From Fidelibacterota bacterium (lineage in GTDB: Bacteria > Fidelibacterota > UBA2242): DNA of 64,000 nucleotides. Within the stretch, counting starts at the first letter, position 1. Every line of letters starts with the position of its first letter. The position numbers were made by a program, and so were the translations under genes. Positions 5,242 to 51,979 of the stretch are shown in pieces. The notes under the pieces are model-generated. The model saw nothing but the letters and a program-made list of their open reading frames with translations. It did no database searches and was not told the DNA's origin. The stretch is taken from positions 1,959-65,958 of the forward strand of contig JADHWC010000003.1 of the NCBI GenBank assembly GCA_016783665.1, in the 5' to 3' direction.

Positions 5242-5372
5242 CATCCCCCTTTTTATTCCCCCTTTACTAAGGGGGATTTTAATTTTCCCCTCTAATAAGA
5301 GGGGTGTCCGGCAGCTGCCGGACGGGGTGTGTTACTCCCTTCACCGAAGGAATGATCTCTTTCATAATCCTC
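5242..5372. repeat. Triple-hairpin repeat copy 1, overlapping the 3' end and stop of the DUF559 gene
   Basis: Three consecutive palindromes: ccccctttactaaggggg, cccctctaataagagggg and ccggcagctgccgg. They recur at 5767-5900 and partially at 5929-5966. Confidence 0.8.
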
Positions 5373-5766: not shown

Positions 5767-5966
5767 CATCCCCCTTTTTATTCCCCCTTTAATAAGGGGG
5801 ATTTTAATTTTCCCCTCTAATAAGAGGGGTGTCCGGCAGAGCTGCCGGGCGGGGTGTGTCGCTCTCTTCACCGAAAGAATGATCTCTTTCATAATCTTCG
5901 TTTTAGAAATTAGAATAAATACCAAATCACATCCCCCCTTTTATTCCCCCTTTACTAAGGGGGACT
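5767..5966. repeat. Triple-hairpin repeat copy 2 (5767-5900, including a ~40 bp duplicate of the DUF559 3' coding end) plus partial copy 3 (5929-5966)
   Basis: Near-identical to 5242-5372, ending ...caccgaaagaatgatctctttcataatc; a third truncated copy covers only the first hairpin. Confidence 0.8.
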
Positions 5967-8214: not shown

Positions 8215-10089
8215 TTATTTTGTCGCTTCTTCCATTATTTCATTCAAGCGCTGGACGAATTCCGTCGGATTTGTCAAATTGCCATCAATTAACATCGCTG
8301 ATTCATATAGCTGCAGAATTGACTTTCTCAGAAGCGGATCCTTGCTGTCGCCTATATTCAACCGGGACAAATTTTTAATTAAATGATGGACTGGATTTAT
8401 TTCAAGAATCTTTTTCCGGGGTATAACTTCCTGATTCATGATTTTCATCATTCTTTCCATTTGCGGATCCAAGCCATCTTTCCCGACGACCAAAGTCACA
8501 GGTGAATTTACCAGGCGTTTTGAGACTGTCACATCCTCTACTTTATCGCCAAGAGTTTCCTTAAATACCGAAATCAGTGAGTTTGTCATTGTCTCGTTTA
8601 GCGAATCAGCTTCTTCACTGTCTTTATCCTTTTTCTCATCATCCAGCGTGATATCCGCTTTATCGATGGATTTTAAGGGTTTTTTATCATACTCGTTTAT
8701 TGATGGAGTGACAAAAACGTCCACCGGATCAGTCATTAACAATACTTCGATATCATTTTTCCTGAAATATTCAAGATTAGGATTTCTTTCCACAATATCC
8801 CGGTCCTCGCCTGAAAGATAATAAATCTCTCTCTGCTTTTTCTTCATTCGTGTGATATAATCGTCCAGTGATACCAATTCCCCTTTTGGTTTTGCCGTCG
8901 ATTCAAAACGAAGAAGTTTGATAATTTTATCACGGTTTCCAAAGTTACTATTAACACCTGTTTTGAATAGCATACCAAAATTCTTATAGAACTTTTCAAA
9001 TTTGCCGATATCATTTTTTGACCAATCTTCAAGCATATTGATAATTCTGGTGGTTAAAATTGTTTTGATTTTAGCCATAACCGGACTGTGCTGTGTGACT
9101 TCACGAGAGATATTTAATGGTAAATCTTCCGTATCAACAACACCACGAACAAATGTTAAATATTCCGGTAATAGATCTTTAGCATCGTCCTGAATAAAAA
9201 TACGATTTGAATAGAGATGAAGTCCTTTATCTTCAAGATCATAAAAAAGATTCATTGGAGCTTTTGGCGGTACAAACAATAAAGCCTTAAAGTTAACCGC
9301 GCCTTCGAGAGATAGATGCAGATGACCAAGCGGAGCTTCAAAATCATTAGCGACAAACTTATAAAACTCGATCAATTCATCCTCTTTTAATTCATCTTTT
9401 GACCGGCGCCATAAAGCATCAACAGTATTCGCTTTCTCTTTGCCTATTTCAATCGGGAAATCGACAAAGTTAGAATATTTTTTAATAGTCGATTTAACGC
9501 GATAATCTTCACTAAAATCTTTATGTTCATCCTTTAAACGGAAACTGATTGATGTACCCCGTTTCTTACGGTCAATTTCCTCTATTGTAAATGAACCTTG
9601 TCCGTTTGACGTCCAGCGATACCCTTTTGACCCGGGATTAGCGTGACGGGTTTCTATGACTACCTCGTCAGTTACCATAAAAACAGAATAAAATCCAACG
9701 CCAAATTGACCGATTAAATCTCCCTCAGGAACTTTCCCATTTTTCTGTATCTCTTCCAAAAACTTCAACGTACCGGAATTTGCCACCGTACCGATGTTCT
9801 TGATCAGATCTTCTTCGGTCATTCCAATACCCGAATCTTCTATCGAAAATAACTGCTTTTTAGTATCCAAATTTATCGATATTTTCAGATCAGCATCAGG
9901 ATCAGTGATTTCCTGATTCGTTATCTGTAAAAAACGTACTTTATTCAAGGCATCGGAGGCATTGGAGATTAATTCTCTTAGAAATACTTCCGGATGAGTA
10001 TAAAGGGAATGAACAATCAGATGAAGCAGTTGAGTTAATTCTGCTTTAAACTTATAGGTTTTTTTTGATTTAGTCGAATTTTTAGCCAT
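8215..10089 (-). CDS. htpG: Molecular chaperone HtpG (Hsp90)
   Basis: 624 aa with the GHKL ATPase motif LRELISNASDAL near the N-terminus and a typical Hsp90 middle and C-terminal domain. Confidence 0.95.
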   Translation of the reverse strand: MAKNSTKSKKTYKFKAELTQLLHLIVHSLYTHPEVFLRELISNASDALNKVRFLQITNQEITDPDADLKISINLDTKKQLFSIEDSGIGMTEEDLIKNIGTVANSGTLKFLEEIQKNGKVPEGDLIGQFGVGFYSVFMVTDEVVIETRHANPGSKGYRWTSNGQGSFTIEEIDRKKRGTSISFRLKDEHKDFSEDYRVKSTIKKYSNFVDFPIEIGKEKANTVDALWRRSKDELKEDELIEFYKFVANDFEAPLGHLHLSLEGAVNFKALLFVPPKAPMNLFYDLEDKGLHLYSNRIFIQDDAKDLLPEYLTFVRGVVDTEDLPLNISREVTQHSPVMAKIKTILTTRIINMLEDWSKNDIGKFEKFYKNFGMLFKTGVNSNFGNRDKIIKLLRFESTAKPKGELVSLDDYITRMKKKQREIYYLSGEDRDIVERNPNLEYFRKNDIEVLLMTDPVDVFVTPSINEYDKKPLKSIDKADITLDDEKKDKDSEEADSLNETMTNSLISVFKETLGDKVEDVTVSKRLVNSPVTLVVGKDGLDPQMERMMKIMNQEVIPRKKILEINPVHHLIKNLSRLNIGDSKDPLLRKSILQLYESAMLIDGNLTNPTEFVQRLNEIMEEATK

Positions 10090-10221
10090 TGGATAATTCC
10101 TTATATAATTTGCATAATTATTGAAAAGCGCATTGAGATGTTACGAATATCATGCCAAAATTTTTAAACGTCATATTGTCAGATATTATTTCCGGAATAC
10201 CATAAAACCTAACCTGGATAA

Positions 10222-10287
10222 ACCCCCGAAGGGGCAGGCCCGCCTGCTCCCGAACCGCTACGGCGGAGAGGGTGGGCAGGCAGAGCC
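10222..10287. repeat. GC-rich palindromic element E1 (REP-like)
   Basis: A ~65 bp segment of >65% GC in ~35% GC surroundings (cccccgaaggggcaggcccgcctgctcccgaaccgctacggcggagagggtgggcagg). It shares gctcccgaac...gagaggg(t/c)gggcagg with the element inside hsdS (19419-19497, opposite strand). Confidence 0.7.
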
Positions 10288-10340
10288 AAAAAGGAAAAGA
10301 GTTAAAAGTGAAAAATGAACAGGCTGTTCCAGTCCAGGCG

Positions 10341-10490
10341 ATTCTGGATACTGGATTCTGGATACTGGATTCTGGATTCTGGATACTGGATTCTAGATAC
10401 TGGATTCTGGATACTGGGTACTGGATTCTGGATACTGGGTACTGGATTCTGGATACTGGGTACTGGATTCTGGATACTGGGTACTGGATA
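10341..10490. repeat. Tandem heptanucleotide array (~21 x [a/t]ctgg[a/g]t) with a 21-bp higher-order unit actgggtactggattctggat x4
   Basis: Direct reading shows attctggatactggattctggat... ending in four perfect 21-mers, in the divergent region between htpG and the receiver/hydrogenase operon. The 79-aa ORF listed here is its translation. Confidence 0.9.
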
Positions 10491-10798
10491 AGAAAAAAAA
10501 CAAGAATATGATTAGTAAGGGACTAATTGTTCACGAAATACGCTATAAATTGTAAATCTTTTGGAGTTTTATGGCAAATATTGTATGCTCCTTTAGATTT
10601 CATTTATTATATTACGGCGCTTTGATGGTTTATTGAAAACACTATAGTACGTATCAGATATCTAACAGCTAAGCGTATATGATACAGTTGCAATAAATTC
10701 TCTGTAAATAAGCCCCTTTTATCAGGCTATTTTAAATAGTATGACCGGGGATAATCGTACATAAAAAATATTAGATCACATTTTAGGAGGACTGTTTA

Positions 10799-11170
10799 AT
10801 GGCGAAAATATTAATAGTCGATGATGACGAAGACTTTGTATCGGCTGTCAATCTCTTACTGAAAAGCAACGGTTTTGATGTTGCAATTGCAAATTCCCGC
10901 CAGGAAGGAATGGAAAAATTTGATGAAGATAATCCGGACCTGGTCTTATTGGACGTGATGATGGATGAACCGGATGACGGATTTGTAATGGCTCAATCGC
11001 TCAAGAAAAAAGCGAAGGACATCCCGGTTCTGATGTTAACAAATGTCGGACAGGTTACAGGTCTGGATTTTGACAAAGACAGTGAAATGGTTCCCGTCGA
11101 TGATTTTGAGCAAAAACCAATTATGCCAAATATATTACTTGATAAAATAAACCAACTTCTTGGCAAATAA
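10799..11170 (+). CDS. Stand-alone response-regulator receiver domain protein (CheY-like)
   Basis: 123 aa: ILIVDDDEDF...LVLLDVMMD (acidic pocket and phospho-acceptor Asp) with AGGAGG RBS; sits immediately upstream of the hydrogenase genes. Confidence 0.8.
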   Translation: MAKILIVDDDEDFVSAVNLLLKSNGFDVAIANSRQEGMEKFDEDNPDLVLLDVMMDEPDDGFVMAQSLKKKAKDIPVLMLTNVGQVTGLDFDKDSEMVPVDDFEQKPIMPNILLDKINQLLGK

Positions 11171-14939: not shown

Positions 14940-17888
14940 TTACACTTTCTCTGAATAATCCTCAAACAACACTCTTTTCACATACTGATTCCGTTTGGGC
15001 TCAGTGAGCTTTTTGTAAAAACCCAAACTATCATCCACCAATCCTTGTAGTAATTTGTCAAATACCTTGTTGAACATAAATCTTTTATTGGATTCTGTGT
15101 TATCACCAAGATGAACTTTCCGTAGTTCCTTATCCTCATTCAACCGGGTTTGTATTTTTTCCAAATTCACTTTGTCATCGTCGTTCAAATCACTACCAAA
15201 GTTCTCATTTAGGACTTGTATGATATGGGATAGTAAATCTTTGAGTTCTTCGGGTGGAGATTCACCCACCCCGGTTGATATAGGTTGTAACTCCCCATCC
15301 TCATACATCAGGGAAATCGGATAGCTATGTTTCTTCTCAATCCTGAAATACTCCAAATCCACATAGGAAAAAACATCTGCCAATCTATCTCTTGTTCTCC
15401 TGGGGAGTTTCCTGTTCAGGAATCGCAGGAAGATATACAGTTTTTCAAGCTTTATATCTTTGAAAGTGATGATTTGAGAAATGTATCCGTACAGTCTAAT
15501 AAAACTCTGAATCTGATGACGGAAATCTTCCCTTTCTTCTTCCTCCAACCTCTTCCAATCTTCTACCACATAGTCCAAAATGGGTTGTAGTTCTTCATCG
15601 GGTATTCTGTCATCGTAGAACTTCTCTATCAACTCATTTACTGTTTCATCCCGGAATAGATTGTATTTCTTTATTTCTTGTTCAATGGAATACAGTTTGT
15701 TGGGGTCGGTTTCCTCTACAAGTAGAGTCCCTTGATAGTATGGTTGGAATGAATCCTGAATGATTTCCGGTTTATTCACAAAGTCCAATACAAGAGTGTC
15801 AGTCTTACCTGTCATCGTTCTGTTCAACCTGCTCAAAGTCTGAACGCACTGGAGTCCTTGAAGTCGTTTATCTACATACATTGTATGAAGTAACGGTTCG
15901 TCAAATCCTGTTTGAAACTTGTTACAAACAATCAGGATTCTATACTGCGGGTCTTTGAAGTTCTCCTGGGTCAATCTTTCAGGGAAACCGTTCAATGATG
16001 GCTCTGTATATTCCTTGTGAGTATCCTTATCATACACCGTTCCACTAAATCCAACCAGGACTTTGAATGGAAATTCCATTTCTTTTAACTGCTTATCAAA
16101 TTCAAGTTTGTATTTGACACAGTGAAGTCTTGAGCGGGTCACCACCATTCCGCGACTCTTGCCGCTTATTTTTAGGGAGCTATGGTTCAGGAAGTGTTCT
16201 AAAATGATTTTGGTTTTTTCAGAGATGGTATGCGGATGAATATCTACATATTTCACCAACATCTTTTTTACACGACTTTCGGGCAGTTCCTTATCCTCCT
16301 CAATCTTTTTATTTAGACGGAAATATCGCTCATAAGTGGTGTAATTCTGTAAAACATCAAGAGTAAAATTTTCTGAAATACTCTGTCTCATTGAATACAA
16401 ATCAAAAGAAACGAACTGTCCGTCCTCGTTCTTTCTGCCAAAGATTTCAAATGTTTTATTCTTCGGTGTTCCACTAAAACCGAAATAGGAAATATGAGCT
16501 TGTCTTCCCCTTGAAATAATTTCATCTAATATCAGTTTATCCACTTCGGTAAGGTCATCCCAATCCTCACCTTCCTGGAACTCATCCAATACAGATTTGG
16601 ACAGAGATTTTTTCAGGTGTTTGGATGTTTCTCCACTTTGAGATGAATGAACTTCATCGATGATAACGCCGAACTTCTTACTTTTCAGTCTGGATATGGA
16701 ATCTGATATAACAGGGAATTTCTGAACTGTGGTAATGATGATGGATTTCCCCAATTCAAGGTATTCTTTCAACTGTTGGGAATTGACATCCACAGGATTC
16801 ACTACACCTTTGGTTTGTTCTAACTGTTTAACGGTATTCCGTATTTGTTTGTCTAAAACCTTTCTGTCTGTAACTACAATTACAGAATCAAACATACCTT
16901 CCGTGTCTGCGGGAGTTCTGTAAAGAGAAGTCAATAGATGAGACAACCAACCAATAGATAAGGATTTACCACTTCCTGTGCTGTGTTGTATCAGATAATT
17001 ATTTCCAACACCTTCTTCAACTACAGATTTCTTCAAGCTCCTGATGACATTCAATTGATGGAATCGGGGGAAAATCAGAAGTTCTTTTTTCTTATCAACC
17101 ACTTTCCCAAGCTTTGAATCATACACCTTCTCTTTTTCTTCACGGATATGAACAAAGTTCTCTATCAAATCCAACATACTGTTGGGATGTAGAATATCCT
17201 CCCACAGATAATGGGTTTTATGTCCTTTAGGATTGACAGGATTTTCAATGTCTTTGTTGTAAGGAAGAAACCGTGTCTTACCACCCATCAACCGTGTCGT
17301 CATTGACACTTTTTCATTCCCTACAGAAAAATACACAAGATTCCGTTTGAATCTGAACAACGGTTCTTTGGGATCGCGGTCATACTTCCATTGTTTCTCA
17401 CCGTCGATATGGTTCTGTCCCGTGAGTGTGTTTTTCAGTTCCATCATCACGATTGGGATTCCATCGATGAAGATTCCCATATCAATAGAGTTCTCATTTT
17501 TCAGAGAGTATTTCAGTTGTCGGATGACGGTAAAACGATTCTGTTTGTATAAATCTTTATGTTCAGGATTCAGCCCGCTCCTGGGCTGGAAATATACCAG
17601 GTGAAAATCACAGCCCCTGTCCTTGACGCCATTCCGTAAGACATCGATAACCCCTCTGTTTTCAATTTCTGTGGATACTCGTTTTATCAGTTTGATTTCT
17701 GTTTCAGAACCATATTGTAATTCAAGTTTTTCAAGGGTTTTAGCCTGGGTTTCCTGAATGAATTCAATCAGTTGGGCAGGAATAAGACAGAGAGTTTTAT
17801 CATATATGGATGGGTCTGATGAAGAATAACCACTACTGACAAGATGTTCTTCAATGTGTTCTTCAAAGTCTTGTTCAAGGTAATTCAT
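14940..17888 (-). CDS. hsdR: Type I restriction enzyme R subunit HsdR
   Basis: 982 aa with an N-terminal PD-(D/E)xK nuclease motif (IDGIPIVMMELK), SF2 helicase motif I (HSTGSGKS) and motif II (DEVH); lies in an hsdM/hsdS context. Confidence 0.85.
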   Translation of the reverse strand: MNYLEQDFEEHIEEHLVSSGYSSSDPSIYDKTLCLIPAQLIEFIQETQAKTLEKLELQYGSETEIKLIKRVSTEIENRGVIDVLRNGVKDRGCDFHLVYFQPRSGLNPEHKDLYKQNRFTVIRQLKYSLKNENSIDMGIFIDGIPIVMMELKNTLTGQNHIDGEKQWKYDRDPKEPLFRFKRNLVYFSVGNEKVSMTTRLMGGKTRFLPYNKDIENPVNPKGHKTHYLWEDILHPNSMLDLIENFVHIREEKEKVYDSKLGKVVDKKKELLIFPRFHQLNVIRSLKKSVVEEGVGNNYLIQHSTGSGKSLSIGWLSHLLTSLYRTPADTEGMFDSVIVVTDRKVLDKQIRNTVKQLEQTKGVVNPVDVNSQQLKEYLELGKSIIITTVQKFPVISDSISRLKSKKFGVIIDEVHSSQSGETSKHLKKSLSKSVLDEFQEGEDWDDLTEVDKLILDEIISRGRQAHISYFGFSGTPKNKTFEIFGRKNEDGQFVSFDLYSMRQSISENFTLDVLQNYTTYERYFRLNKKIEEDKELPESRVKKMLVKYVDIHPHTISEKTKIILEHFLNHSSLKISGKSRGMVVTRSRLHCVKYKLEFDKQLKEMEFPFKVLVGFSGTVYDKDTHKEYTEPSLNGFPERLTQENFKDPQYRILIVCNKFQTGFDEPLLHTMYVDKRLQGLQCVQTLSRLNRTMTGKTDTLVLDFVNKPEIIQDSFQPYYQGTLLVEETDPNKLYSIEQEIKKYNLFRDETVNELIEKFYDDRIPDEELQPILDYVVEDWKRLEEEEREDFRHQIQSFIRLYGYISQIITFKDIKLEKLYIFLRFLNRKLPRRTRDRLADVFSYVDLEYFRIEKKHSYPISLMYEDGELQPISTGVGESPPEELKDLLSHIIQVLNENFGSDLNDDDKVNLEKIQTRLNEDKELRKVHLGDNTESNKRFMFNKVFDKLLQGLVDDSLGFYKKLTEPKRNQYVKRVLFEDYSEKV

Positions 17889-18089
17889 TTTTCCAATTCT
17901 TTTCTAAAGTTTGTCTAATTTAGTAAAGAAACTGCGTGATTCAAGTGATAATACATAATTCGAATAACTCCTTGTTATAGCGATAGATAGATGTATTCAT
18001 ATCCTGCATTTCAATCTTATTTGCTATCAATTCAACACCCTTCTTTACTAAAACTTTACTAATTCTTTACTAAAATCCATTTTCTACCA

Positions 18090-18665
18090 CGTAACCCACG
18101 AATTTATTCGTGGGTGATACAATAATGTCTAAACCAAACCGATTCATCGGTTTATCTCCAGATTATGCAACTTCATGAATTGTTCATATTCCTCTTTGAA
18201 GGTCATTTTACGATGATGCTCTTCTTGCGTTCGGATGTATCGTTCGACTTTTCCCACATCAGATTCACTAACAGAAAACGCTCCATAGCCAACCTGCCAA
18301 CTGAATTTTAATTGTACTAAATCCTCCTGATTAATCCAATGAGACGTTTCCCCTTTGATAGATTTCATTACTTGAGCAATTGAGACCTCTCTGGAAAGTA
18401 AAAATAATTGATGCACATGGTCACTTGTCCCATTGATAATTAGAACCTTACAATCCATTTCCTCCAATTTCTCGTATAAATGGGTATGTACATCTTTACG
18501 GATAGCATTAACAAGCAATGGTCTCCGATCTTTAGTTCCAAAGATGCCGTGTATCCATAATTTTGTTAGTGAGTGACTCATAACTTTCCTTTGTATAAAC
18601 CGTTAAAACGGTTTCCTTTTTGTTGTTGTTCATGCTCCCACGATTGAAATCGTGGGTTTCTAACA
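18090..18665 (-). mobile_element. IS200/IS605-family (possibly RAYT-like) element inserted between hsdR and hsdS
   Basis: A Y1/HuH tnpA gene is flanked on each side by a pair of hairpins in mirror arrangement. Left side: cccacgaatttattcgtggg then aaccgattcatcggtt; right side: aaccgttaaaacggtt then cccacgattgaaatcgtggg. Confidence 0.7.
18144..18581 (-). CDS. tnpA: IS200/IS605-family tyrosine (HuH, Y1) transposase TnpA
   Basis: 145 aa with HuH motif (SDHVHQLF) and a C-terminal catalytic Tyr region (ERYIRTQ); N-terminal WIHGIFGTKDRRPLL resembles IS200 TnpA and RAYT. Confidence 0.8.
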   Translation of the reverse strand: MSHSLTKLWIHGIFGTKDRRPLLVNAIRKDVHTHLYEKLEEMDCKVLIINGTSDHVHQLFLLSREVSIAQVMKSIKGETSHWINQEDLVQLKFSWQVGYGAFSVSESDVGKVERYIRTQEEHHRKMTFKEEYEQFMKLHNLEINR

Positions 18666-18721
18666 ATTGTTTATCATTCAGTCCTCGATTGTGATTGTGG
18701 ATTGCTTCGTATGGTTCGCAT

Positions 18722-20158
18722 TCATCTTGATTGTGTCTCTCCTTCAACCAAGACGGTTGAGTTATACCCCCTCACATCAATTTTCCCCGTCACCACTTCG
18801 GAAATAAGTGATTGACGGTATTCTTTTAAAAGTTCAATTCGTTGGGTTTCTTTTTCAATGGTAGTGTCAATCTTTTGGGTTTGTTCATCAAGATATTCAA
18901 CGATTTGGTGTTGTTCAGTATTGGTTGGTTTTGGATAAACCATATTTGAATATTTTTCACCATTCACATTTTCAATAGTTGAAGTGATTGTGTTTAGACG
19001 AATCCAATATAAATAAAAATCAGTTTTCGTTGTGTAAAAGACAAATTTTGAAGAAAAATAATCCCCAAAATTGAATCTTACTAAATAACCACCTGAAGAA
19101 TACATACCATCTTGAAGATGTAAATATGATTTGCCTACAGTATGTCCACTTCTACATAACAACAAATCATATTTATCCAATAGAAACTCTACATCCACAT
19201 CTGATTCAATTAAATATTTTCCATTATCGGGATTCAATTCTCCACAATCATCAAGGTCTGTAATCCTTATAAACCTTACACCATTTTCAGTATATCTGTC
19301 ACTACTAATATTGAGACCATAACGAACTGGTATTAGTGTATCGTATTTAAGTTTTGAAATAGTCCAACCACTCGGAATCTCCCCAATCCACTTAACACCA
19401 CTATCTTTCATCTCCACATTCCTGCCCGCCCTCTCGTCCGTTCGGGAGCCAGCCTGCTCACGGAGTGCTGGCAGGCAGGCGGGGGGGTTCAGCCCTTTGG
19501 TCACACAATGATTGATAAGGGCAGTTCGTTTTTCTTTCAGGAGTTCGATCTTCTTTTCTGTTTTTTCAATCAGTTCGTCAATCTTTTGGGTTTTGTGGTC
19601 AAGGAAGGAGACGATTTGTATTTGTTCTCTTTTTGGAGGAATCAAGAATTGAAAAGTAGAAATCTCTTCTTGACTCAACATTGGGATTGTTGTAATTGAA
19701 CCAATCAAATTAATTTGAGTAAAAATGTGATTTGATTGTAAATAGTACCAAAGAAATATTGGATTTTCTTTTATTTGATTAACCAAAACAAGACTCGGAT
19801 TGATTGTCATTTCACCATAATCTTCATCAATGAATACTACTTTCCCTAAACTTCCCCTTTGACTAATAATCATATCACCTTTTTTCACCATAATCTCGGG
19901 GGACTCATAATATTTATCCCAACTCAAAAAGTCAGGATTTGATAGGTCTATTTTTTGGGATGAGTTGATATGTTTCCCTCCAAGAACTAAACATCCTTCC
20001 CCTTCATCTACAAAATCAGTTTTCTTATATCCTTTGTATCCAATCCTACCCTGTAAATTTACAATATATCCAAGTTTTTTTCTTGCCCACCCACTCGGTA
20101 TCTCTCCAATCCACTCAACTTCACTATCTTTATATGACGGATACGGTCTCATTATCAA
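18722..20158 (-). CDS. hsdS: Type I restriction-modification specificity subunit HsdS (two target-recognition domains)
   Basis: 478 aa with duplicated EVEWIGEIPSGW / GVKWIGEIPSGW TRD starts, a central coiled-coil conserved region, and C-terminal ...LISEVVTGKIDVR. Confidence 0.85.
   Translation of the reverse strand: MIMRPYPSYKDSEVEWIGEIPSGWARKKLGYIVNLQGRIGYKGYKKTDFVDEGEGCLVLGGKHINSSQKIDLSNPDFLSWDKYYESPEIMVKKGDMIISQRGSLGKVVFIDEDYGEMTINPSLVLVNQIKENPIFLWYYLQSNHIFTQINLIGSITTIPMLSQEEISTFQFLIPPKREQIQIVSFLDHKTQKIDELIEKTEKKIELLKEKRTALINHCVTKGLNPPACLPALREQAGSRTDERAGRNVEMKDSGVKWIGEIPSGWTISKLKYDTLIPVRYGLNISSDRYTENGVRFIRITDLDDCGELNPDNGKYLIESDVDVEFLLDKYDLLLCRSGHTVGKSYLHLQDGMYSSGGYLVRFNFGDYFSSKFVFYTTKTDFYLYWIRLNTITSTIENVNGEKYSNMVYPKPTNTEQHQIVEYLDEQTQKIDTTIEKETQRIELLKEYRQSLISEVVTGKIDVRGYNSTVLVEGETQSR
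19419..19497. repeat. GC-rich palindromic element E2 inserted in-frame in the hsdS inter-TRD linker
   Basis: A ~78 bp stretch of ~70% GC inside a ~33% GC gene. It translates to ...PPACLPALREQAGSRTDERAGRNV... exactly between the central conserved helix (TKGLNP) and TRD2 (EMKDSGVKWIGEIPSGW). Its reverse complement is similar to E1 at 10222-10287. Confidence 0.7.
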
Positions 20159-20239
20159 TTCTTTTTACATAGGTTAATAACGCAAAAAATTACACATACT
20201 TTTATATCTATAGGTAAATAATCCAATTTTCTACCCATA

Positions 20240-21304
20240 CTATTCTTCGCCTGCAAATAGTGTAAATAATGGTAAGTTGACATAATAGTTACTATTTTTG
20301 ATTTTCATTTTTTTTACAAAGCCATCTTCTGATAACTGATTGAGATAACCGGATGCCGTTTTTCTTGACACCCTTAATTCATGTTCAACAAACTCTATTT
20401 TTGTATAAGGATGTTTAAACAAGTTGTTTATCAAATCCTGGCTATAAAATTTATATTGATTTCTTATTCGATGTTTATAATCCATCATCAACCGCTTAAT
20501 CTCAGAAATAATTATGACGGTGTGTTGCGATGTTTCTGCAATGCCATTTAACATCCAGATAATCCATGATTCCCAATCATTCTCCGTGCGAACACCTTGC
20601 AACAATTGATAATAATCCGTTTTGTTCTCAATAATGTATTTGCTGAGATAAAGAACCGGAATATCAAGTAGTTTTTTTTGTAGTAGATACAGAATATTGA
20701 TAATTCGCCCGGTCCTGCCATTACCATCATAAAAAGGATGAATACTTTCAAACTGATAGTGAATGATTGCCATTTTAATCAACGGATCAATATCGTGCAG
20801 TGAATCTTCATTGATATAATTTTCAAGATTGCTCATTAACGCAACAATTTCATTTGCATCCTGTGGCGGTTTGTAGATGGTTTCTCCAGCGCTGTTTTGC
20901 AATACCGTGCCAGGTATTCTTCGAAAACCTTGCTTTATCGGCTCAATTATTTTTTGAATTTCCAAAATATAATTATTTGTCAAAAGATGGTGCTTTTTGA
21001 CCAGTTTAAATCCTTTTTTCAAAGCATTTGCATAATTTTTCACCTCTTTTGCCGCTAGATTATTGAAACTATCGTCCGCATCCGCACGGTAAAGATCATC
21101 TTGAGTAGTTATTATATTTTCAATTGCAGAACTATCTTTTGCTTCTTGTAAAGCAAGTGTATTTATAAGAATTTCTTCATTAGGAATTGTTTTGGATTCT
21201 CCTTTCAACTCCCCCAACGCCCGACTGGCTTTGTTTAAATTTTCATAAATATCCGATGTTTTGACATTTATATCCAGAGGCAACTTTTGCAATGATATAT
21301 TCAT
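20240..21304 (-). CDS. fic: Fic/DOC family protein (adenylyltransferase-type Fic)
   Basis: 354 aa with Fic motif HPFYDGNGRTGR; overlaps the hsdM stop by 4 nt and lies between hsdM and hsdS. Confidence 0.85.
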   Translation of the reverse strand: MNISLQKLPLDINVKTSDIYENLNKASRALGELKGESKTIPNEEILINTLALQEAKDSSAIENIITTQDDLYRADADDSFNNLAAKEVKNYANALKKGFKLVKKHHLLTNNYILEIQKIIEPIKQGFRRIPGTVLQNSAGETIYKPPQDANEIVALMSNLENYINEDSLHDIDPLIKMAIIHYQFESIHPFYDGNGRTGRIINILYLLQKKLLDIPVLYLSKYIIENKTDYYQLLQGVRTENDWESWIIWMLNGIAETSQHTVIIISEIKRLMMDYKHRIRNQYKFYSQDLINNLFKHPYTKIEFVEHELRVSRKTASGYLNQLSEDGFVKKMKIKNSNYYVNLPLFTLFAGEE

Positions 21305-23007
21305 AATATCTCCTTCATCAATCCTTCTGTTTCCTCCTCCAATTTCAACAAATCCCGGGTGATTTCTTCCAATGACCGAAGTGGTTTATATTTGTAAAAA
21401 TACTTGGTGAAGTTGATTTCGTAGCCCACTTTGTCTTTGTCTCTATCCATCCAGGAACCCTTCAAATGGGGTATAACTTCCCGTTGGTAGTATTCCTCAA
21501 TATCATCCAACAAGGGAACACGTTCATAATCTCTTTTTGATGTGTCAGGTTTCGGATTTCCCTGCTTATCCGTTACTATTTCACCGTTTTCCATCATCGG
21601 TTGTTCTATGGTGACTTTGGTATAACCGAAAAACTCATTGGGATAAATTTTACTGTATTCACTCTCCGCAAAGTTCAGATAGTGTTCCAATAAGGTATTT
21701 CGGTTTTCCTCGGTGATTTCTTTCCGTTTATTCCCCAGTGATTTCTTCATCTGTTTGAAGAAAGCAGAACCGTTGATGAGTTGGACTTTACCTTTTCGTC
21801 TTTCTGATTTCCTGTTATTTACAATCCATATATAAGTGGAAATACCTGTGTTGAAGAACAGTTGGTCGGGAAGTGATACAATACACTCCAGCCAATCATT
21901 TTCAATAATCCATTTACGGATTTCAGATTCACCGCTGCCACTGTCCCCCGTGAATAATGGAGAACCGTTAAACACTATCCCAATCCGGCTTCTTTTTGAT
22001 TCCATCTTGGAAATCATATGTTGAAGGAATAACAAAGAACCATCAGAAGTTCGTGGTGTTCCGACGGAGAATCTTCCATAGGGATTCTGTCCCTCATTTT
22101 CAATGAACTCTTTTTCAGATTTCCAGCTAACACCAAATGGGGGATTTGTAATCATATAGTCATATTTTTTTCCTTGAAAATTGTCCTCTGATAGAGATGA
22201 ACCCAATCGGATGTTGTCAGGGTCTTCATCGGTAATCAACATATCGGACTTACAGATTGAATAGGTTTGGGGATTCAGTTCTTGTCCTAACAGACGAAGT
22301 TTCACTTTGTCGTTGATATTCTGATGGATATATTCTTTTCCGATAGTCAACATTCCGCCAGTTCCACAACAAGGGTCAAAAATGCTTCTGACTTTGCCTT
22401 CACCTTGTAAATCATCTTTATCCTCTGAAAAGACAAGGGAAACCAACAGACGAACTACATCTCTTGGGGTATAGTGTTCTCCACTTGTTTCATTGGACAT
22501 TTCAGAGAACTTCCGTAACAATTCTTCAAAGATAAGTCCCATATCACGGTTGGAAATCTTATCAGGGTGTAAATCTATTTCGGTGAGTTTGTCTATAAGA
22601 ATAAACAGACGGTTATTCTTGTTCAGTTTCTCAACCGGTTTCTCCAACTGAAAATTCTCAATAATCTCGACAACATTGTCACTGAATCCACCCAGGTAAT
22701 TCTGAAAGTTCATATATACATTCTGTGGGTCGGATTTCAGTCTTTTCAAATCATACTTGGAATGATTGAAAAAGCTGGTGTTGATTCGGTTTAGAATGAT
22801 TGGGGTGGGGTCATCTACTTTGGTTCTGTATTCTTCGTAGATGTTGAACACATCGTCTTTGTGAGGTTCTAAAACACAATCCAATCTCCGTAGAACGGTG
22901 AACGGTAGAATCACATCGCCGTATTCGTGTGGTTTGAATAATCCCCGAAGGACATCATCACAGACATTCCAGATGAAGGATGATATTTGGTTATAGTTAT
23001 TTGACAT
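21301..23007 (-). CDS. hsdM: Type I restriction-modification N6-adenine DNA methyltransferase HsdM
   Basis: 568 aa with SAM-binding FDPCCGTGGML and catalytic NPPFG (ITNPPFGVSW). Confidence 0.9.
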   Translation of the reverse strand: MSNNYNQISSFIWNVCDDVLRGLFKPHEYGDVILPFTVLRRLDCVLEPHKDDVFNIYEEYRTKVDDPTPIILNRINTSFFNHSKYDLKRLKSDPQNVYMNFQNYLGGFSDNVVEIIENFQLEKPVEKLNKNNRLFILIDKLTEIDLHPDKISNRDMGLIFEELLRKFSEMSNETSGEHYTPRDVVRLLVSLVFSEDKDDLQGEGKVRSIFDPCCGTGGMLTIGKEYIHQNINDKVKLRLLGQELNPQTYSICKSDMLITDEDPDNIRLGSSLSEDNFQGKKYDYMITNPPFGVSWKSEKEFIENEGQNPYGRFSVGTPRTSDGSLLFLQHMISKMESKRSRIGIVFNGSPLFTGDSGSGESEIRKWIIENDWLECIVSLPDQLFFNTGISTYIWIVNNRKSERRKGKVQLINGSAFFKQMKKSLGNKRKEITEENRNTLLEHYLNFAESEYSKIYPNEFFGYTKVTIEQPMMENGEIVTDKQGNPKPDTSKRDYERVPLLDDIEEYYQREVIPHLKGSWMDRDKDKVGYEINFTKYFYKYKPLRSLEEITRDLLKLEEETEGLMKEIL

Positions 23008-30837: not shown

Positions 30838-31954
30838 TCGGACGGCGAATTTAAGATTTTAATCCATAAAAGCAAACTCATTTTCGAGGACTTTTACTTC
30901 ATATATCGTGCAAATATTGCGTTTATCGTTCCGGGAAGATCTCCCTTGTACCAGAACCATCCCCTTTCTCGTCTCAATGACCCTGCGTTGATACGGAGCT
31001 TTTTTCAGTGTCTCCTACTGGAACGAAGACACGAGTGGTGTAACACAAACACTCTTGTTTGTGAGCAATTATTTTACCGCGACCAATCTGCTGAGTAATA
31101 TCGTTCCGAAGCACCTGCCCGACCTGTCAGGCGGGGAACCCCGGAACGAGAAATGCGAGAATCCTCACTAATCTGGCTACGGGGTTGTACTCCGTAGCCT
31201 TCATACGTTCCGTAGCAAAGCCACGGAACGAGATTCAACGAGACGCGCTCCCAATCTCTGGCTACAGTGCCCCCCCCCGCCTGAAGGTCGGACAGGCTGC
31301 TCTTTAGCCTATTTAACCGCCCGGAGCGATGCGCTCCGCATACTGTCATTCCTACATTATTTTGTACTTTATCATTGCATCTGACATGAATTTGTCCTGT
31401 TATATTTCATCATGGCTGGGAACCTCGAAAAACGTCACCGCACAACTCTCTGGGAAATGCTCAGAGATTTGCCGAATCTGGCAAAAGTGAACGGTTCCAG
31501 TCATTGGCACGTTTTTCCGAACCATCAGAAAAGACGGCTGAGAATAAAGCAAAACACTAATCATCCGGTCATTGTAAATACCCGTGGACCGCCTGTGATC
31601 GAAGCATCCTTCCGAAGGTTCGGAACCTTCGGAAGGTTTAAAGCAACGTAACGAGATGTATTATTTTACTCTGGCTGCGGGATTGTACTCCGCAGCCATT
31701 TTACACTCTTGTTTGTGAGCGGTAATCTGGCTACAGGGTAGCCAGGTAATAACGCAAACCCGTCTTCTATGAAACGAAGTGGAATCAAACGGGTTTCGCG
31801 GATTTATGGGGAAACATTCTGAGTTTATGACGATGTGCTTTAGTTTTGCTTCGGGGGCGCTGAAACCCATACCGAAAGTTTCTTCGGATTACGCGAAAGA
31901 TTCAAGTAATATCGTGAAGTATGTTAGATAACTTTTGCAAAGTTATCCTTAAAC
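30838..31954. repeat. ~1.1 kb non-coding region dense in GC-rich palindromic/REP-like repeats (possible structured ncRNA locus)
   Basis: Repeated units aatctggctac (x4) and the hairpin ggctacggggttgtactccgtagcc (31178; variant at 31671) occur with stems cgttccgt...acggaacg, two copies of acactcttgtttgtgagc, and a 29-nt near-perfect palindrome ccttccgaaggttcggaaccttcggaagg (31598-31626). The only ORFs are short and GC-skewed. Confidence 0.6.
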
Positions 31955-49326: not shown

Positions 49327-51720
49327 TCATTTTCTAAATTTATAGGAAATCGAAATAAACCCATTCCGCGTCGCTCCGGGCCAATAATAGGCATAATAAC
49401 CGCCCCATTCATAGCCATACCCGTATGTTGAATACAATTTATTCAGGATATTATTCACCTTACAATTAACTTCAATATTCTTAAATACATACCGGATGCC
49501 GCCGTCCAGCAGCCAAAAAGCGTCATTGGTTCCGAGGTTTTGTTTGTCGAGATACTGTTTCCCCACATAGCGCATCGCAATGAAAAACGTCAGCTGATCA
49601 ATCGGATTCAATCGCAGACTGCCGTTAAATAATATCGATGGAACATTGGGAATGACCTTATCCTTACAGCTACCGCTCTGAAAAATATGCCGGCTTATGC
49701 TGCTGTTCAGGTTCACTGCCCAGAATGATGACGGCTGATAATTCAGTTCCAGTTCAATTCCCTGGTGCAATGTCGCGTCGGAATGATAATAGATGTACTC
49801 TCCCTCCTGTTCAACATCGATGTTTTTCAACTGCTCGTTTTTATAATTAATCCTATACAGGTTCAGGTCGAACTCGAATTGGCGGCTTCGATAACTGCCG
49901 CCTAATTCATAATCGTTTATCAATTCAGCTGACGCCTTCCGGGGAGTGCTCCATACATCGTCGGCTTCGATGATCTGATCGTCTGCCGGTTCGCGCTGGG
50001 CTTTCCCGTAATTCGCAAAGACGGATAACTCATCGGTAAATGAATATATCGCTCCAAAGCGTGGATTCACGAATCTCCACACCGCATCCAATTGATACCC
50101 GACGGCATGTCCGATCTTCTTCTGATCCATATTCCAGTGAATGTATTGATACTGCAGATCGGCAATCAGTTTCAATTTTTCAAGCGGTTCAAAAGCAAAG
50201 TGAGCGAAACCTGTTGTGATCAATTTTTCACCAATATAGTTATAATACCGATACCAGTCTTCGGAAATTAGAGACGATAAATCAGGATCGGAGAAATCAG
50301 CGATTTCACCGTAGTGATCACCGGTATAGAAACGAATCTCACCGCCGATATCCAGTCGATATTTATTACGAATATATGTCAGTGTCGGAATCATCCCGAA
50401 ATAGTTATTGACGATCCATTTCCTACGAGTAAAGCCCAATTCGCGGCTACTATATAAATCCCACGGGTAATCCGGATAATAATTATCAAGATTATAGGAA
50501 AACAGGAAATCTCTGAAATCGTCCCGGTCATCAGTTCCAATGTCATTGGTAAGATCATAACCGGATGACTTTTCGGTCTCGTAATACCCCTCGCCCATCA
50601 CAAGGTAAGCGACATTACTGAAGTGAAGACGATCGCTGATCCGCCAGAAGCTGTTCAAAGAATAGACCTGTTGTAAAAAGTCATCGATATAAGATTGATA
50701 ACCAGCGCGCCGCTTTTTACGGTCATTGATATCATCAGCAGAAACGCCGTCCCACATCAGATGACTTCGTTCATAGCCTATCAATGCCCTGAATTGATGA
50801 GTGAATTTAACACCGTCGTATTCAATCCCGACAGATCCGGCTTTCTGATCGGTATCATGAAAATCACGATAGCCTTCGGATTTAATCTGTGAAAGCCTTG
50901 CCGATAGTTTTACTCTTTTATTGAAAAGCGCTCCACTAGCGGCTTTTAGATGGATTTTCGACGTATTATACGAACCCGCGCCCACATTCAGTGACAATTC
51001 CGGTTTATCGGATCCAATCGATGTAATCACATTTATCGATCCTCCAAAAGCCGAAGCGCCGTAAAGGCTGTTGCCAATCCCGCGCTGTATCTGAACATCT
51101 TCGGCATCACTGAGAACATCGCCATGATCTACCCAATAGACCTGATGACTTTCATTATCGTTCAATGGCACATTATTCATCATCACGGCGATGCGGCTCT
51201 GATCGAATCCCCTAATCTGGACATAGGAATAACCGGTTCCGTTGCCGCTTTCACTGTAGGAATAAACACCCGGTTCCATAGCAAGTATCATCGGTAAATC
51301 TTCGACAGTGTAGCGGTTTTGAATTTCCTCAGCAGTAAGTTCCGAAAAGGCGACCGGTGTTTTTCCTTTCACGGCTCGTGTGGCAGTCACAAAGACATCT
51401 TTGCCCGTTAATACTTCCGGAACAAGATATATATCGCCGACAGTACTTTTTTTTACTAAAAATGTCGTATCCCTGAACGCAATGTGGGAAACGGTTATTT
51501 TACAGGGCAATATTGTGTAATTCAGCACAAAATCGCCGGACTCATTGGAGTAAGTTCCCTCACCGGTTTCAAGAAATATATTGGCATAATCAATCGGTTT
51601 TCCCGTTGACCGGGATACTATTTTACCGGTTATGAGATTTTCATTGCTGAATCCCACACTTGTGAAAAAAAGCGTAATTAGAATAAAAATGAAAAATGCG
51701 GAGAATGTTTTTTGGGTCAT
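49327..51720 (-). CDS. TonB-dependent outer-membrane receptor with N-terminal carboxypeptidase-regulatory-like domain
   Basis: 797 aa with a signal peptide, a CarboxypepD_reg-like beta-sandwich (GKIVSRSTGKPIDYANIF...SGDFVL), plug domain and a long beta-barrel. Confidence 0.8.
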   Translation of the reverse strand: MTQKTFSAFFIFILITLFFTSVGFSNENLITGKIVSRSTGKPIDYANIFLETGEGTYSNESGDFVLNYTILPCKITVSHIAFRDTTFLVKKSTVGDIYLVPEVLTGKDVFVTATRAVKGKTPVAFSELTAEEIQNRYTVEDLPMILAMEPGVYSYSESGNGTGYSYVQIRGFDQSRIAVMMNNVPLNDNESHQVYWVDHGDVLSDAEDVQIQRGIGNSLYGASAFGGSINVITSIGSDKPELSLNVGAGSYNTSKIHLKAASGALFNKRVKLSARLSQIKSEGYRDFHDTDQKAGSVGIEYDGVKFTHQFRALIGYERSHLMWDGVSADDINDRKKRRAGYQSYIDDFLQQVYSLNSFWRISDRLHFSNVAYLVMGEGYYETEKSSGYDLTNDIGTDDRDDFRDFLFSYNLDNYYPDYPWDLYSSRELGFTRRKWIVNNYFGMIPTLTYIRNKYRLDIGGEIRFYTGDHYGEIADFSDPDLSSLISEDWYRYYNYIGEKLITTGFAHFAFEPLEKLKLIADLQYQYIHWNMDQKKIGHAVGYQLDAVWRFVNPRFGAIYSFTDELSVFANYGKAQREPADDQIIEADDVWSTPRKASAELINDYELGGSYRSRQFEFDLNLYRINYKNEQLKNIDVEQEGEYIYYHSDATLHQGIELELNYQPSSFWAVNLNSSISRHIFQSGSCKDKVIPNVPSILFNGSLRLNPIDQLTFFIAMRYVGKQYLDKQNLGTNDAFWLLDGGIRYVFKNIEVNCKVNNILNKLYSTYGYGYEWGGYYAYYWPGATRNGFISISYKFRK

Positions 51721-51886
51721 GATAAGCTCCCTTCGCTGGTATTATCCAGATCAGGTTCAAAGGGTATTTTCTCAGCCGTTCACGTGTTAGTGAAAAGCAC
51801 CCCCAGAACTTCAGTTTTTAAATATCACAATTACAATTTAATAACTATTTATTACTAAAATCAAATAGTTTTCATAACAATATTAG

Positions 51887-51979
51887 CGGGAACGCCTGGG
51901 AGTCGAACCCAGCTCCCCGATTGTATCGGGGACAGCGATTTTGAAGACCGCGACACCCACCGGGGTTGCATTCATTCCC
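51887..51979 (-). tRNA. selC: Probable selenocysteine tRNA (tRNA-Sec, anticodon UCA)
   Basis: Minus-strand RNA GGGAAUGAAUGCAACCCCGGUGGGUGUCGCGGUCUUCAAAAUCGCUGUCCCCGAUACAAUCGGGGAGCUGGGUUCGACUCCCAGGCGUUCCCG, ~93 nt. It has a long variable arm (CCCCGAU-ACA-AUCGGGG), T-loop UUCGACU, anticodon loop CUUCAAA, discriminator G, and an extended acceptor stem with one G.U pair. Confidence 0.72.

Follow-up and report, generated by a model that had tools for sequence, protein, structure and literature searches.

The hsdS gene and its insert

The window analysed here is a stretch of 64,000 nucleotides from a Fidelibacterota bacterium (contig JADHWC010000003.1 of assembly GCA_016783665.1) that carries the operon of a Type I restriction–modification (R-M) system. 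This report concerns its specificity gene, hsdS, into which a 63-bp GC-rich hairpin element has inserted without breaking the reading frame. The element belongs to a family of very small repeats, and the interpretation that we regard as probable is that a family repeat entered the gene in frame and is tolerated as a loop of the HsdS protein. The operon was described from the open reading frame (ORF) list and Pfam matches, and every reading frame in it is full length:

14940–23007, minus strand: hsd operon, genes in the order hsdM, fic, hsdS, tnpA, hsdR
21301–23007, minus strand: hsdM, first gene of the Type I R-M operon
20240–21304, minus strand: fic, between hsdM and hsdS
18722–20158, minus strand: hsdS, Type I R-M specificity subunit, 478-aa ORF (Pfam PF01420 Methylase_S, E 1.8e-15)
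19421–19483, plus strand (antisense to hsdS): 63-bp GC-rich insert with ends CCTGCCCG...CAGGCGGG, placed by homologue alignment and by the empty site in locus L016
18144–18581, minus strand: tnpA, IS200-like, 145 aa, between hsdS and hsdR (Pfam Y1_Tnp, 2.4e-26)
14940–17888, minus strand: hsdR, last gene of the operon

The database start of hsdS is the ATG at 20152, giving 476 aa, and the product is a 100% match to P0001 (MBL7066350.1, 'restriction endonuclease subunit S [Candidatus Marinimicrobia bacterium]'). The gene is intact and, with hsdM and hsdR alongside, has the layout of target-recognition domains (TRDs) and conserved regions (CRs) TRD1-CR1-TRD2-CR2, the structural model having two globular TRDs and two long antiparallel helices. 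The closest solved structure, 1YF2, matches both halves. At the nucleotide level hsdS is a mosaic of two related loci, its TRD1 half being 93% identical to L007 (GCA_030631535.1) and 72% to L016, and identity in its TRD2 half standing at 89% with L016 and about 70% with L007. The insert has a GC content of 74.6% (0.746) against 33.8% for the remainder of hsdS, and over 80-nt segments the GC fraction reaches 0.61–0.63 at the GC-rich block compared with about 0.3 around it. The initial annotation had drawn this block at 19419–19497 (~78 bp) and credited it with about 23 extra residues. A GC-rich segment within one ORF is indeed present, but those borders lie 2 nt too far to the left and 14 nt too far to the right, the true size is 63 bp and the extra linker residues number 21 (PACLPALREQAGSRTDERAGR, ORF residues 226–246), since the trailing 'NV' is native to HsdS, as is the 'KGLNP' that precedes the insert.

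Borders of the insert and uninterrupted sites

Alignment of 24 homologues placed the insert at residue level: all read ...TKGLNP-(N/D)VEMKDSGVEWIGEIP... and extra residues between KGLNP and NVEMKDSGV are found solely in the window protein. The same linker was then counted in 112 of the 120 best hits, namely those in which it could be located, and its spacing is canonical in 110, the exceptions being the window protein (+21) and P0002 (+11). At nucleotide level the uninterrupted site is preserved in L016, which encodes P0003 and contributes the closely related TRD2 half: it reads TTGAACCCC^AATGGAGAG (AACCCC^AATG), and the L016 sequence TTGAACCCC^AATGGAGAGATG aligns to CTGAACCCC[63 nt]AATGTGGAGATG in the window. 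L007 is also empty at the window insertion point (CTGAATCCT^GATGTAGAG). Homologue alignment and empty site therefore agree with the earlier proposal of an insertion exactly at the junction of the central helix and TRD2 with the frame unbroken.

Comparison of the filled window site with AACCCC^AATG in L016 reveals no target-site duplication, and the borders are unambiguous, since the base that ends the insert is not the same as the one that ends the left flank. Duplicated flanks are also absent at the family copies in L007 and L008 (described below), the borders of which were set by the arms. The same protein and the same element DNA are present in contigs from five ENA and JGI samples, which excludes an assembly artefact. 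The frame was kept because the insert as a whole measures 63 nt and a stop codon is absent from five of its six frames; the intragenic copies of the family are 63, 33 and 36 nt long, as selection for frame would demand.

A family of small hairpin repeats

The family is defined by the ends CCTGCCCG...CAGGCGGG, and its canonical unit is a 36-nt hairpin. With copies written on the strand beginning CCTG, the members are:

Window 19421–19483, plus strand: hsdS copy, CCTGCCCGCCCTCTC-GTCC-GTTCGGGAGC[27 nt]AGGCGGG, 63 nt
Window 19449–19476, minus strand: nested 27-nt segment in the hsdS copy, CCTGCCAG-CACTCCGTGAG-CAGGCTGG, phase ambiguous by 1 nt (19449–19475 or 19450–19476)
Window 10239–10280, minus strand: intergenic copy, CCTGCCCACCCTCTC-CGCCGTAGCG-GTTCGGGAGCAGGCGGG, 42 nt (nhmmer E 5e-6)
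L008 4036–4071, plus strand: copy in a candidate phyla radiation (CPR) genome, CCTGCCCGCCCTCTC-GAAT-GTTCGGGAGCAGGCGGG, 36 nt, canonical
L007 6697–6729, plus strand: sister-locus copy, CCTGCCCGCGCTG-AACAAAGAGAA-GCAGGCGGG, 33 nt
Window 31114–31135, plus strand: mini-copy, weak member, CCTGCCCGACCTGTCAGGCGGG, 22 nt, sharing the family ends only
Window 31276–31296, minus strand: mini-copy, weak member, CCTGTCCGACCTTCAGGCGGG, 21 nt, inverted relative to 31114–31135

Once its internal 27 nt are taken out, the hsdS copy becomes a perfect 36-mer, and the 4-nt loop is then all that separates it from the L008 copy. The 27 nt appear as an alignment gap against the three other copies and were recognized, in a pattern search allowing one substitution per arm, as an inverted degenerate mini-copy with one mismatch per end. 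As deletion restores the canonical unit and the deleted piece is itself an inverted mini-copy, the hsdS insert consists of a canonical unit into which a family member is nested; the lengths of the two, 36 and 27 nt, are each divisible by three.

The intergenic copy lies between htpG (8215–10089, minus) and a response-regulator gene (10799–11170, plus) and is identical in two other assemblies. It shares with the hsdS copy colinear exact blocks of 15, 10 and 9 nt, and the 15-mer GAGAGGGYGGGCAGG occurs exactly in the window only at 10266–10280(+) and 19421–19435(-), with 0.74 matches expected when up to three mismatches are allowed. The resemblance to an intergenic element at 10222–10287 that had been noted earlier is thus real, the blocks being colinear and the 15-mer beyond chance, although the true copy is confined to 10239–10280. 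The proposed link of the hsdS insert to 31268–31281 (ccccccccgcctg) stands in so far as the 8–9 nt terminal motif CCCGCCTG is common to both places (six occurrences in the window against 0.61 expected), while the C run in that segment is flank and the underlying unit is the mini-copy 31276–31296. A profile built from the four well-defined copies recovers those four at E 2e-9 to 3e-4 and does not find the mini-copies significant (E about 25 for 31114–31135), which makes these two the weakest members. The L008 copy matches the family arms at 15/15 and 17/17 positions. Three of the four well-defined copies lie within coding sequence. Family copies, profile and empty site all concur with the original suggestion that a repeated GC-rich palindromic element had been inserted.

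Wider searches added little. In the scan of one genome per species with the pattern TCCCGAAC-N(2-14)-GAGAGGGYGGGCAGG the sole match was a chance one in a 71% GC Streptomyces contig, and the source species itself was not recovered. A slightly looser pattern run on the JGI metagenomes gave eight loci, of which seven were chance matches in GC-rich or unrelated DNA and L008 alone was real. Viral contigs scanned for the element pattern gave no hits, and the approximately 2.5 kb of contig beyond the window holds no further family copy. The 30-residue peptide LNPPACLPALREQAGSRTDERAGRNVEMKD had no match among 1.84 billion representative proteins, a search of limited sensitivity for so short a query, and this points to there being no recurring peptide family, unlike the situation with the Rickettsia elements. 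The flanks of seven insertion sites show no convincing common target motif. As a full-text search of the literature with the arm sequences returned irrelevant matches only, the CCTGCCCG...CAGGCGGG family appears to be undescribed so far.

Adjoining the intergenic copy, at 10330–10500, is a tandem array of units of about 14–15 nt (TGGATTCTGGATAC-like), the length of which differs or is unresolved (N run) between assemblies L018 and L019.

Anatomy of the hairpin

All six copies open with CCTG, and when they are folded as single-strand DNA these four bases precede the stem without pairing in five cases. The stem that follows is imperfect (CCCGCC.../...GGCGGG) with a variable loop or interior, so that the two family ends form imperfect inverted repeats. 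Different copies have their stem mismatches in common, a pattern that favours derivation from a shared source by copying over convergence on a hairpin. In the secondary-structure check the copies of 36–63 nt give hairpins and the two mini-copies a weak fold or none. Relative to composition-matched shuffles the L008 36-nt unit has z -2.9 as DNA, and the surroundings of the intergenic copy (10215–10295, 81 nt), folded as RNA, have z -2.8 and -3.1 on the two strands.

A second insertion in a sister hsdS gene

L007 is a sister R-M locus with 91% nucleotide identity to the window in hsdM, 93% in the 5' half of hsdS and 90% in hsdR, and with a different TRD2. Its hsdS holds a 33-nt family member of its own (CCTGCCCGCGCTGAACAAAGAGAAGCAGGCGGG) 8 codons (24 nt) downstream of the window insertion point, between GGT(A/G)TG and GAGTGG, in the opposite orientation relative to the gene and adding 11 residues. 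Between the two positions both genes keep an unbroken coding stretch for the conserved NVEMKDSG, so that the simplest account is one of two independent insertions.

The surroundings of the two genes differ. In the window fic (Fic_N / Fic / SoFic-like_C, 20240–21304) overlaps hsdM by 4 nt, and at the same place L007 has an unrelated 558-aa gene without a Pfam hit on record, from which it appears that the accessory genes of this operon slot are exchangeable. Where the window has the IS200-like unit, L007 has an SLFN_AlbA_2 gene.

A copy in a Nomurabacteria genome

L008 and its relatives L022 and L023 come from another phylum, their PGK and PilB proteins being 75–85% identical to those of Candidatus Nomurabacteria/Paceibacterota. 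In all three the canonical 36-mer stands at the 5' end of a prepilin-like gene, the frame of which reads MKNTFYNR[ACPPSRMFGSRR]G|MTVIEI..., with pseudopilin/pilin profiles starting at residue 20. Without the 36 nt the leader would be MKNTFYNRG, which resembles the MKTERELNRG of the neighbouring gene. On identical DNA this prepilin has been called either as 168 aa, with the element translated, or as 147 aa. The 147-aa form was considered as an empty site and rejected, as it reflects another start call on the same DNA; a 25-residue extension of the CPR PGK was likewise considered as an insertion and rejected as an upstream start call only.

Further observations were made at these loci. At L022 7890–7960 (= L008 4000–4075) the 147-aa start would leave no leader peptide or Gly at -1, and the first prepilin ATG has a TATAAT box some 20 nt upstream. 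At L022 4394–4423 (= L008 511–540) a palindrome, CCCGCCCGAACGACCATTCGGGCGGG, is in frame in the acidic linker of PilB, where it is translated as TRPNDHSGGR; TRPND..GR-like segments are found in a few PilB orthologues that are 82–83% identical (P0257, P0268 and P0277), most having EKSGEKS, and the palindrome looks like a related GC-rich hairpin turned part of a protein linker.

Effect on the HsdS protein

An AlphaFold2 model of the window HsdS was built on the homologue alignment (mean pLDDT, the predicted local distance difference test score, 84). Both TRDs and the helices 176–221 and 413–456 are confident, and pLDDT falls below 50 only in residues 225–258 and in the C-terminal tail. The two coiled-coil helices are matched in length in the model (46 and 44 residues), and since the central helix ends at residue 221 the insert (226–246) starts past its end, in a linker whose equivalent in 1YF2 is 8 residues long. 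The insertion point is the junction of the HsdS half-repeats, and the (M)KDSGVKWIGEIPSGW that comes next echoes KDSEVEWIGEIPSGW at the N-terminus. HsdS is known to work when supplied as half-length proteins or in circularly permuted form, so that the junction between the halves is dispensable and the covalent linker permissive. It is the helical conserved regions that measure out the distance between the TRDs, the order being TRD1-CR1-TRD2-CR2 (PMC12707154). The model therefore makes it most likely that the insert forms a surface loop that is tolerated and stays clear of the coiled coil, the effect on the enzyme being most likely none or slight, and we infer that the loop is tolerated or neutral. 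The earlier suggestion that it could affect TRD spacing or target recognition is not borne out, as the insert falls past helix 176–221 within the low-confidence loop 225–258 and the helices remain matched; an effect on TRD spacing is, from this model, unlikely.

Comparison with known elements

Insertion of small repeats into reading frames is an event of a kind already known from Rickettsia palindromic elements (RPEs) and from ERIC, BOX and QMITE elements. RPEs are palindromic selfish DNA found in frame in functional genes, where the extra peptide is compatible with the fold (PMC10969869), and in-frame insertion of small repeats is also documented for ERIC, BOX, Coxiella QMITE1/2 and the MITEs (miniature transposable elements with inverted repeats) of Anabaena (PMC10969869, PMC5896051), so the description of such events in the initial annotation as rare outside Rickettsia was too strong. 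The present family shares with RPEs the in-frame insertion into intact genes (63 nt in the window hsdS, 33 nt in the L007 hsdS, 36 nt in the L008/L022/L023 prepilin gene), a likeness of behaviour and not of membership: RPEs are about 100–150 bp long with a conserved peptide family, whereas here the element is of 36–63 bp, the peptide search found no other carrier, and lineage and sequence are unrelated. Bacterial MITEs (ERIC, BOX, QMITE1/2, Anabaena and Correia elements) are similar in being non-autonomous and sometimes inside ORFs to which they add residues, but they are typically 100–400 bp, with inverted repeats related to those of an insertion sequence and with target-site duplications, in contrast to a 36-nt unit without duplication. 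The term 'MITE-like' applied earlier is not supported, as there is no target-site duplication and no insertion sequence with matching ends was found in the fetched loci.

In form close parallels exist with REPs (repetitive extragenic palindromic sequences), including GTAG types such as SMAG. REPs are about 35 bp (range 21–65), compared with 21–63 nt here, and are G+C-rich, imperfect stem-loops without target duplication whose copies can nest or cluster; the tetranucleotide conserved just 5' of their stem is GTAG (PMC3184786), for which CCTG is a possible counterpart here. The differences are that three of the four well-defined copies of the present family are in coding sequence and that no REP-associated tyrosine transposase (RAYT) flanked by the element was found in the window or the fetched loci, the sole nearby Y1 gene being of IS200 type with other hairpins. 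REP families are usually lineage-specific, whereas the sequence of this family is common to two phyla. The label 'REP' used earlier is not supported either, given that the nearby Y1 gene is of the IS200 type with unrelated hairpins and that most good copies are not extragenic. PATEs and the SMRs of Haloquadratum walsbyi are transposase-free, very short (PATEs down to 52 bp) and without target duplication, and SMRs have inverted ends unrelated to known transposons, insert into other mobile elements and move in a manner that is not known (PMC3119063). The present family likewise has inverted ends, no duplication, no matching transposon in the fetched loci and a nested insertion. It differs in that PATEs and SMRs are archaeal and mainly in non-coding DNA, and they have no sequence in common with it, on which criterion alone relatedness was judged; in addition the hairpins of the adjacent IS200-like unit are unrelated to the element, in which it departs from PATEs. 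Precise ends, lack of duplication, an unpaired tetranucleotide with a hairpin, and nesting are thus features of REP-like, PATE-like or SMR elements rather than of a classical MITE, and the family is set apart from MITEs by the missing duplication, from RPEs by size and the missing peptide family and from RAYT-associated REPs by the missing flanked RAYT, while resembling REPs and Haloquadratum SMRs in form. Within Type I systems EcoR124I and EcoR124II also differ by extra residues between the two TRDs of the specificity subunit (PMC12707154), but that variation is inside the spacer helix and alters the target spacer, whereas here the residues are past the end of the helix, in the linker to TRD2.

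Origin of the insert and alternative explanations

The sequence of events that we propose is that a canonical unit carrying the nested inverted 27-nt mini-copy would have been inserted precisely, and without target-site duplication, into the DNA encoding the CR1-TRD2 linker. Its translation product would be a loop of 21 residues, abundant in Pro, Ala, Gly, Arg and Glu and lying at the seam of the HsdS half-repeats and outside the coiled coil that sets TRD spacing. The insertion may persist because this site is among the few permissive places in hsdS, and any frame-preserving copy landing in a permissive linker would be expected to survive. Single-strand mobility is suspected on account of the anatomy of the hairpin, its conserved tetranucleotide left unpaired and the missing duplication. 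It is possible, though we hold the idea only tentatively, that an HUH/Y1-type enzyme acting in trans moves the family in the form of single-stranded hairpin DNA, as for REP-RAYT or IS200/IS605-derived elements. No insertion sequence with the family ends was found in any fetched locus (a small part of each genome).

A Y1 transposase gene does lie next to hsdS in the window, and the unit that contains it is made up as follows:

18090–18660, minus strand: IS200-like unit, context and not part of the family, with tnpA (18144–18581) within nested AT-rich hairpins
18093–18115 and 18131–18155 on one side, 18595–18619 and 18637–18658 on the other: hairpins of the IS200-like unit (inverted repeats I1 and I2)

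Transposases of the Y1/HUH type add hairpin-bearing single strands without duplicating the target, as is established for IS200/IS605. Mobilization by this TnpA, encoded 840 bp away, with the element as a cut-down PATE-like derivative, would fit its proximity, the absence of target duplication and the existence of PATEs as short as 52 bp (PMC3119063). We nevertheless consider it improbable. The hairpins of this compact unit are nested AT-rich pairs (ACCCACGAATTTATTCGTGGGT / CCCACGATTGAAATCGTGGGT and AAACCGATTCATCGGTTT / AAACCGTTAAAACGGTTT), neither type of which shares sequence with CCTGCCCG...CAGGCGGG; L007 has a family copy but no Y1 gene in 13 kb and the CPR loci have none in 18 kb. With NCBIfam the protein scores 67.6 bits as IS200/IS605 (cut-off 55) against 21.2 bits as a REP-associated tyrosine transposase (cut-off 80), and on the unrelated hairpins and these scores the adjacent transposase was rejected both as mobilizer and as RAYT. 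The hairpin might instead act at the RNA level in the operon, altering mRNA stability, pausing ribosomes or uncoupling translation of the two halves of hsdS. The 96-nt stretch around the insert folds to -38 kcal/mol in an otherwise AT-rich mRNA, and effects on transcript stability are known for REP and SMAG hairpins (PMC3184786). We think such a role improbable too, because the fold has z of only -1.1 against shuffles; no T run follows the stem and the terminator/promoter scan found no terminator-like site on either strand at both good copies; Rfam 15 gave no match to the element at the gathering threshold, a permissive scan of 19300–19620 yielding chance-level matches only (E 1–3.4); the L007 copy is reversed and so makes a different RNA; and there is no stop codon between the hsdS halves.

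That the insert is functional, the longer CR1-TRD2 connection altering the spacing or orientation of the TRDs and hence the recognition sequence, gains some credit from its position between the two TRDs, from the presence of an insert in the same linker of two sister genes and from Type IC enzymes, in which four extra residues in the central region are tied to a different spacer (PMC12707154, table footnote). It is placed after the central helix, however, helices 176–221 and 413–456 are still matched, and it is modelled as an unstructured excursion, while the two inserts are unlike in length, frame, orientation and exact position, which selection for one spacing would not yield; we judge a functional role to be improbable. 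Somewhat more doubtful still is the view that the hairpin marks or promotes recombination at the hsdS seam as a site of TRD cassette shuffling (cf. attC hairpins and the inverted repeats of phase-variable hsdS genes). The mosaic structure of hsdS, L007-like in its TRD1 half and L016-like in its TRD2 half, and the family elements at the seam in two loci would fit, as would the shift, just upstream of the insert, from L007-like GGGCTG to L016-like AACCCC. That shift, however, rests on about four informative sites in a region conserved in all HsdS proteins, too few to judge, and homologous recombination occurs in that conserved region anyway; the proteins of the operon (ORF list and Pfam) include no second hsdS, silent half-gene, recombinase or integrase, the element is lacking from 110 of the 112 homologues, many of them TRD-shuffled, and other copies lie at unrelated places, one intergenic and one in a pilin leader. 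That the GC-rich block is no mobile repeat, and arose by chance, by local duplication or in assembly, could be argued from the few copies and the lack of polymorphism, but is extremely improbable and effectively refuted by precise identical ends at unrelated loci in two phyla, uninterrupted orthologous sites, the agreement of independent assemblies and expected match numbers well below one.

That a family repeat entered in frame and is tolerated as a loop therefore continues to be the probable explanation, and several observations have to be weighed against it. Only four copies (two good and two weak) are present in about 66 kb of genome read, and the two-block pattern run against 185,579 species genomes and the JGI metagenomes found one true extra locus, so the high copy number that is the hallmark of REPs, which number tens to hundreds per genome and are mostly extragenic, or of MITEs is unsupported. 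There is no presence/absence polymorphism among samples, the assemblies being identical at both good copies, and recent mobility is thus unsupported as well. A mobilizing enzyme was not found in the loci examined. Set against composition-matched shuffles, the 63-nt copy has an unexceptional fold energy (z -1.1 to -1.6). The disordered loop of the model is suggestive, its low pLDDT being partly expected because no other row of the alignment covers the insert. Finally, that sister genes were each hit, at points no more than 24 nt apart, might be a sign of targeting or function and not just of tolerance.

Other repeats in the window

The mini-copies lie in a non-coding region of about 1.1 kb (30840–31950) that is dense in other hairpin repeats, including TAATCTGGCTACGGGGTTGTACTCCGTAGCC three times, ACACTCTTGTTTGTGAGC twice and a perfect 29-nt palindrome, CCTTCCGAAGGTTCGGAACCTTCGGAAGG, at 31608–31636; Rfam gave no match to this region at E<=1. 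Two GC-rich double hairpins of the form CCCCTCTAATAAGAGGGGTGTCCGGCAG(A)CTGCCGG(A/G)CGGGGTGTGT, at 5287–5346 and 5810–5886 and about 520 bp apart, lie on both sides of a small DUF559 (endonuclease-like) gene, with which they may make up a small mobile cassette. A tRNA-Sec gene (51888–51979, minus) adjoins a TPP riboswitch (51709–51814, minus).

Significance

A clean case, resolved to the base, is provided here of how very small hairpin repeats can enter a working gene and survive at a structural seam. What takes it beyond the routine is the independent hit in a sister hsdS 24 nt away and reversed, together with a near-identical 36-mer in a CPR genome. There is also a warning for annotation, as gene callers disagree on whether to translate such elements (168 aa against 147 aa for the CPR prepilin). 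A bolder proposal, which we think rather unlikely, is that the CCTGCCCG...CAGGCGGG hairpins are an undescribed single-strand transposable element of 21–63 nt that crosses phyla (Marinimicrobia and CPR/Nomurabacteria), inserts without duplication by means of an enzyme yet to be identified and prefers inter-domain seams (the HsdS junction twice independently and the prepilin leader); new peptide loops would then arise from it quite generally, and in Type I systems it might serve as a breakpoint when TRDs are shuffled. If the family should turn out to be abundant in whole genomes, the Rickettsia theme of 'selfish DNA in proteins' would be extended to uncultivated free-living lineages, hinting at a mobilizing enzyme that is not yet known.

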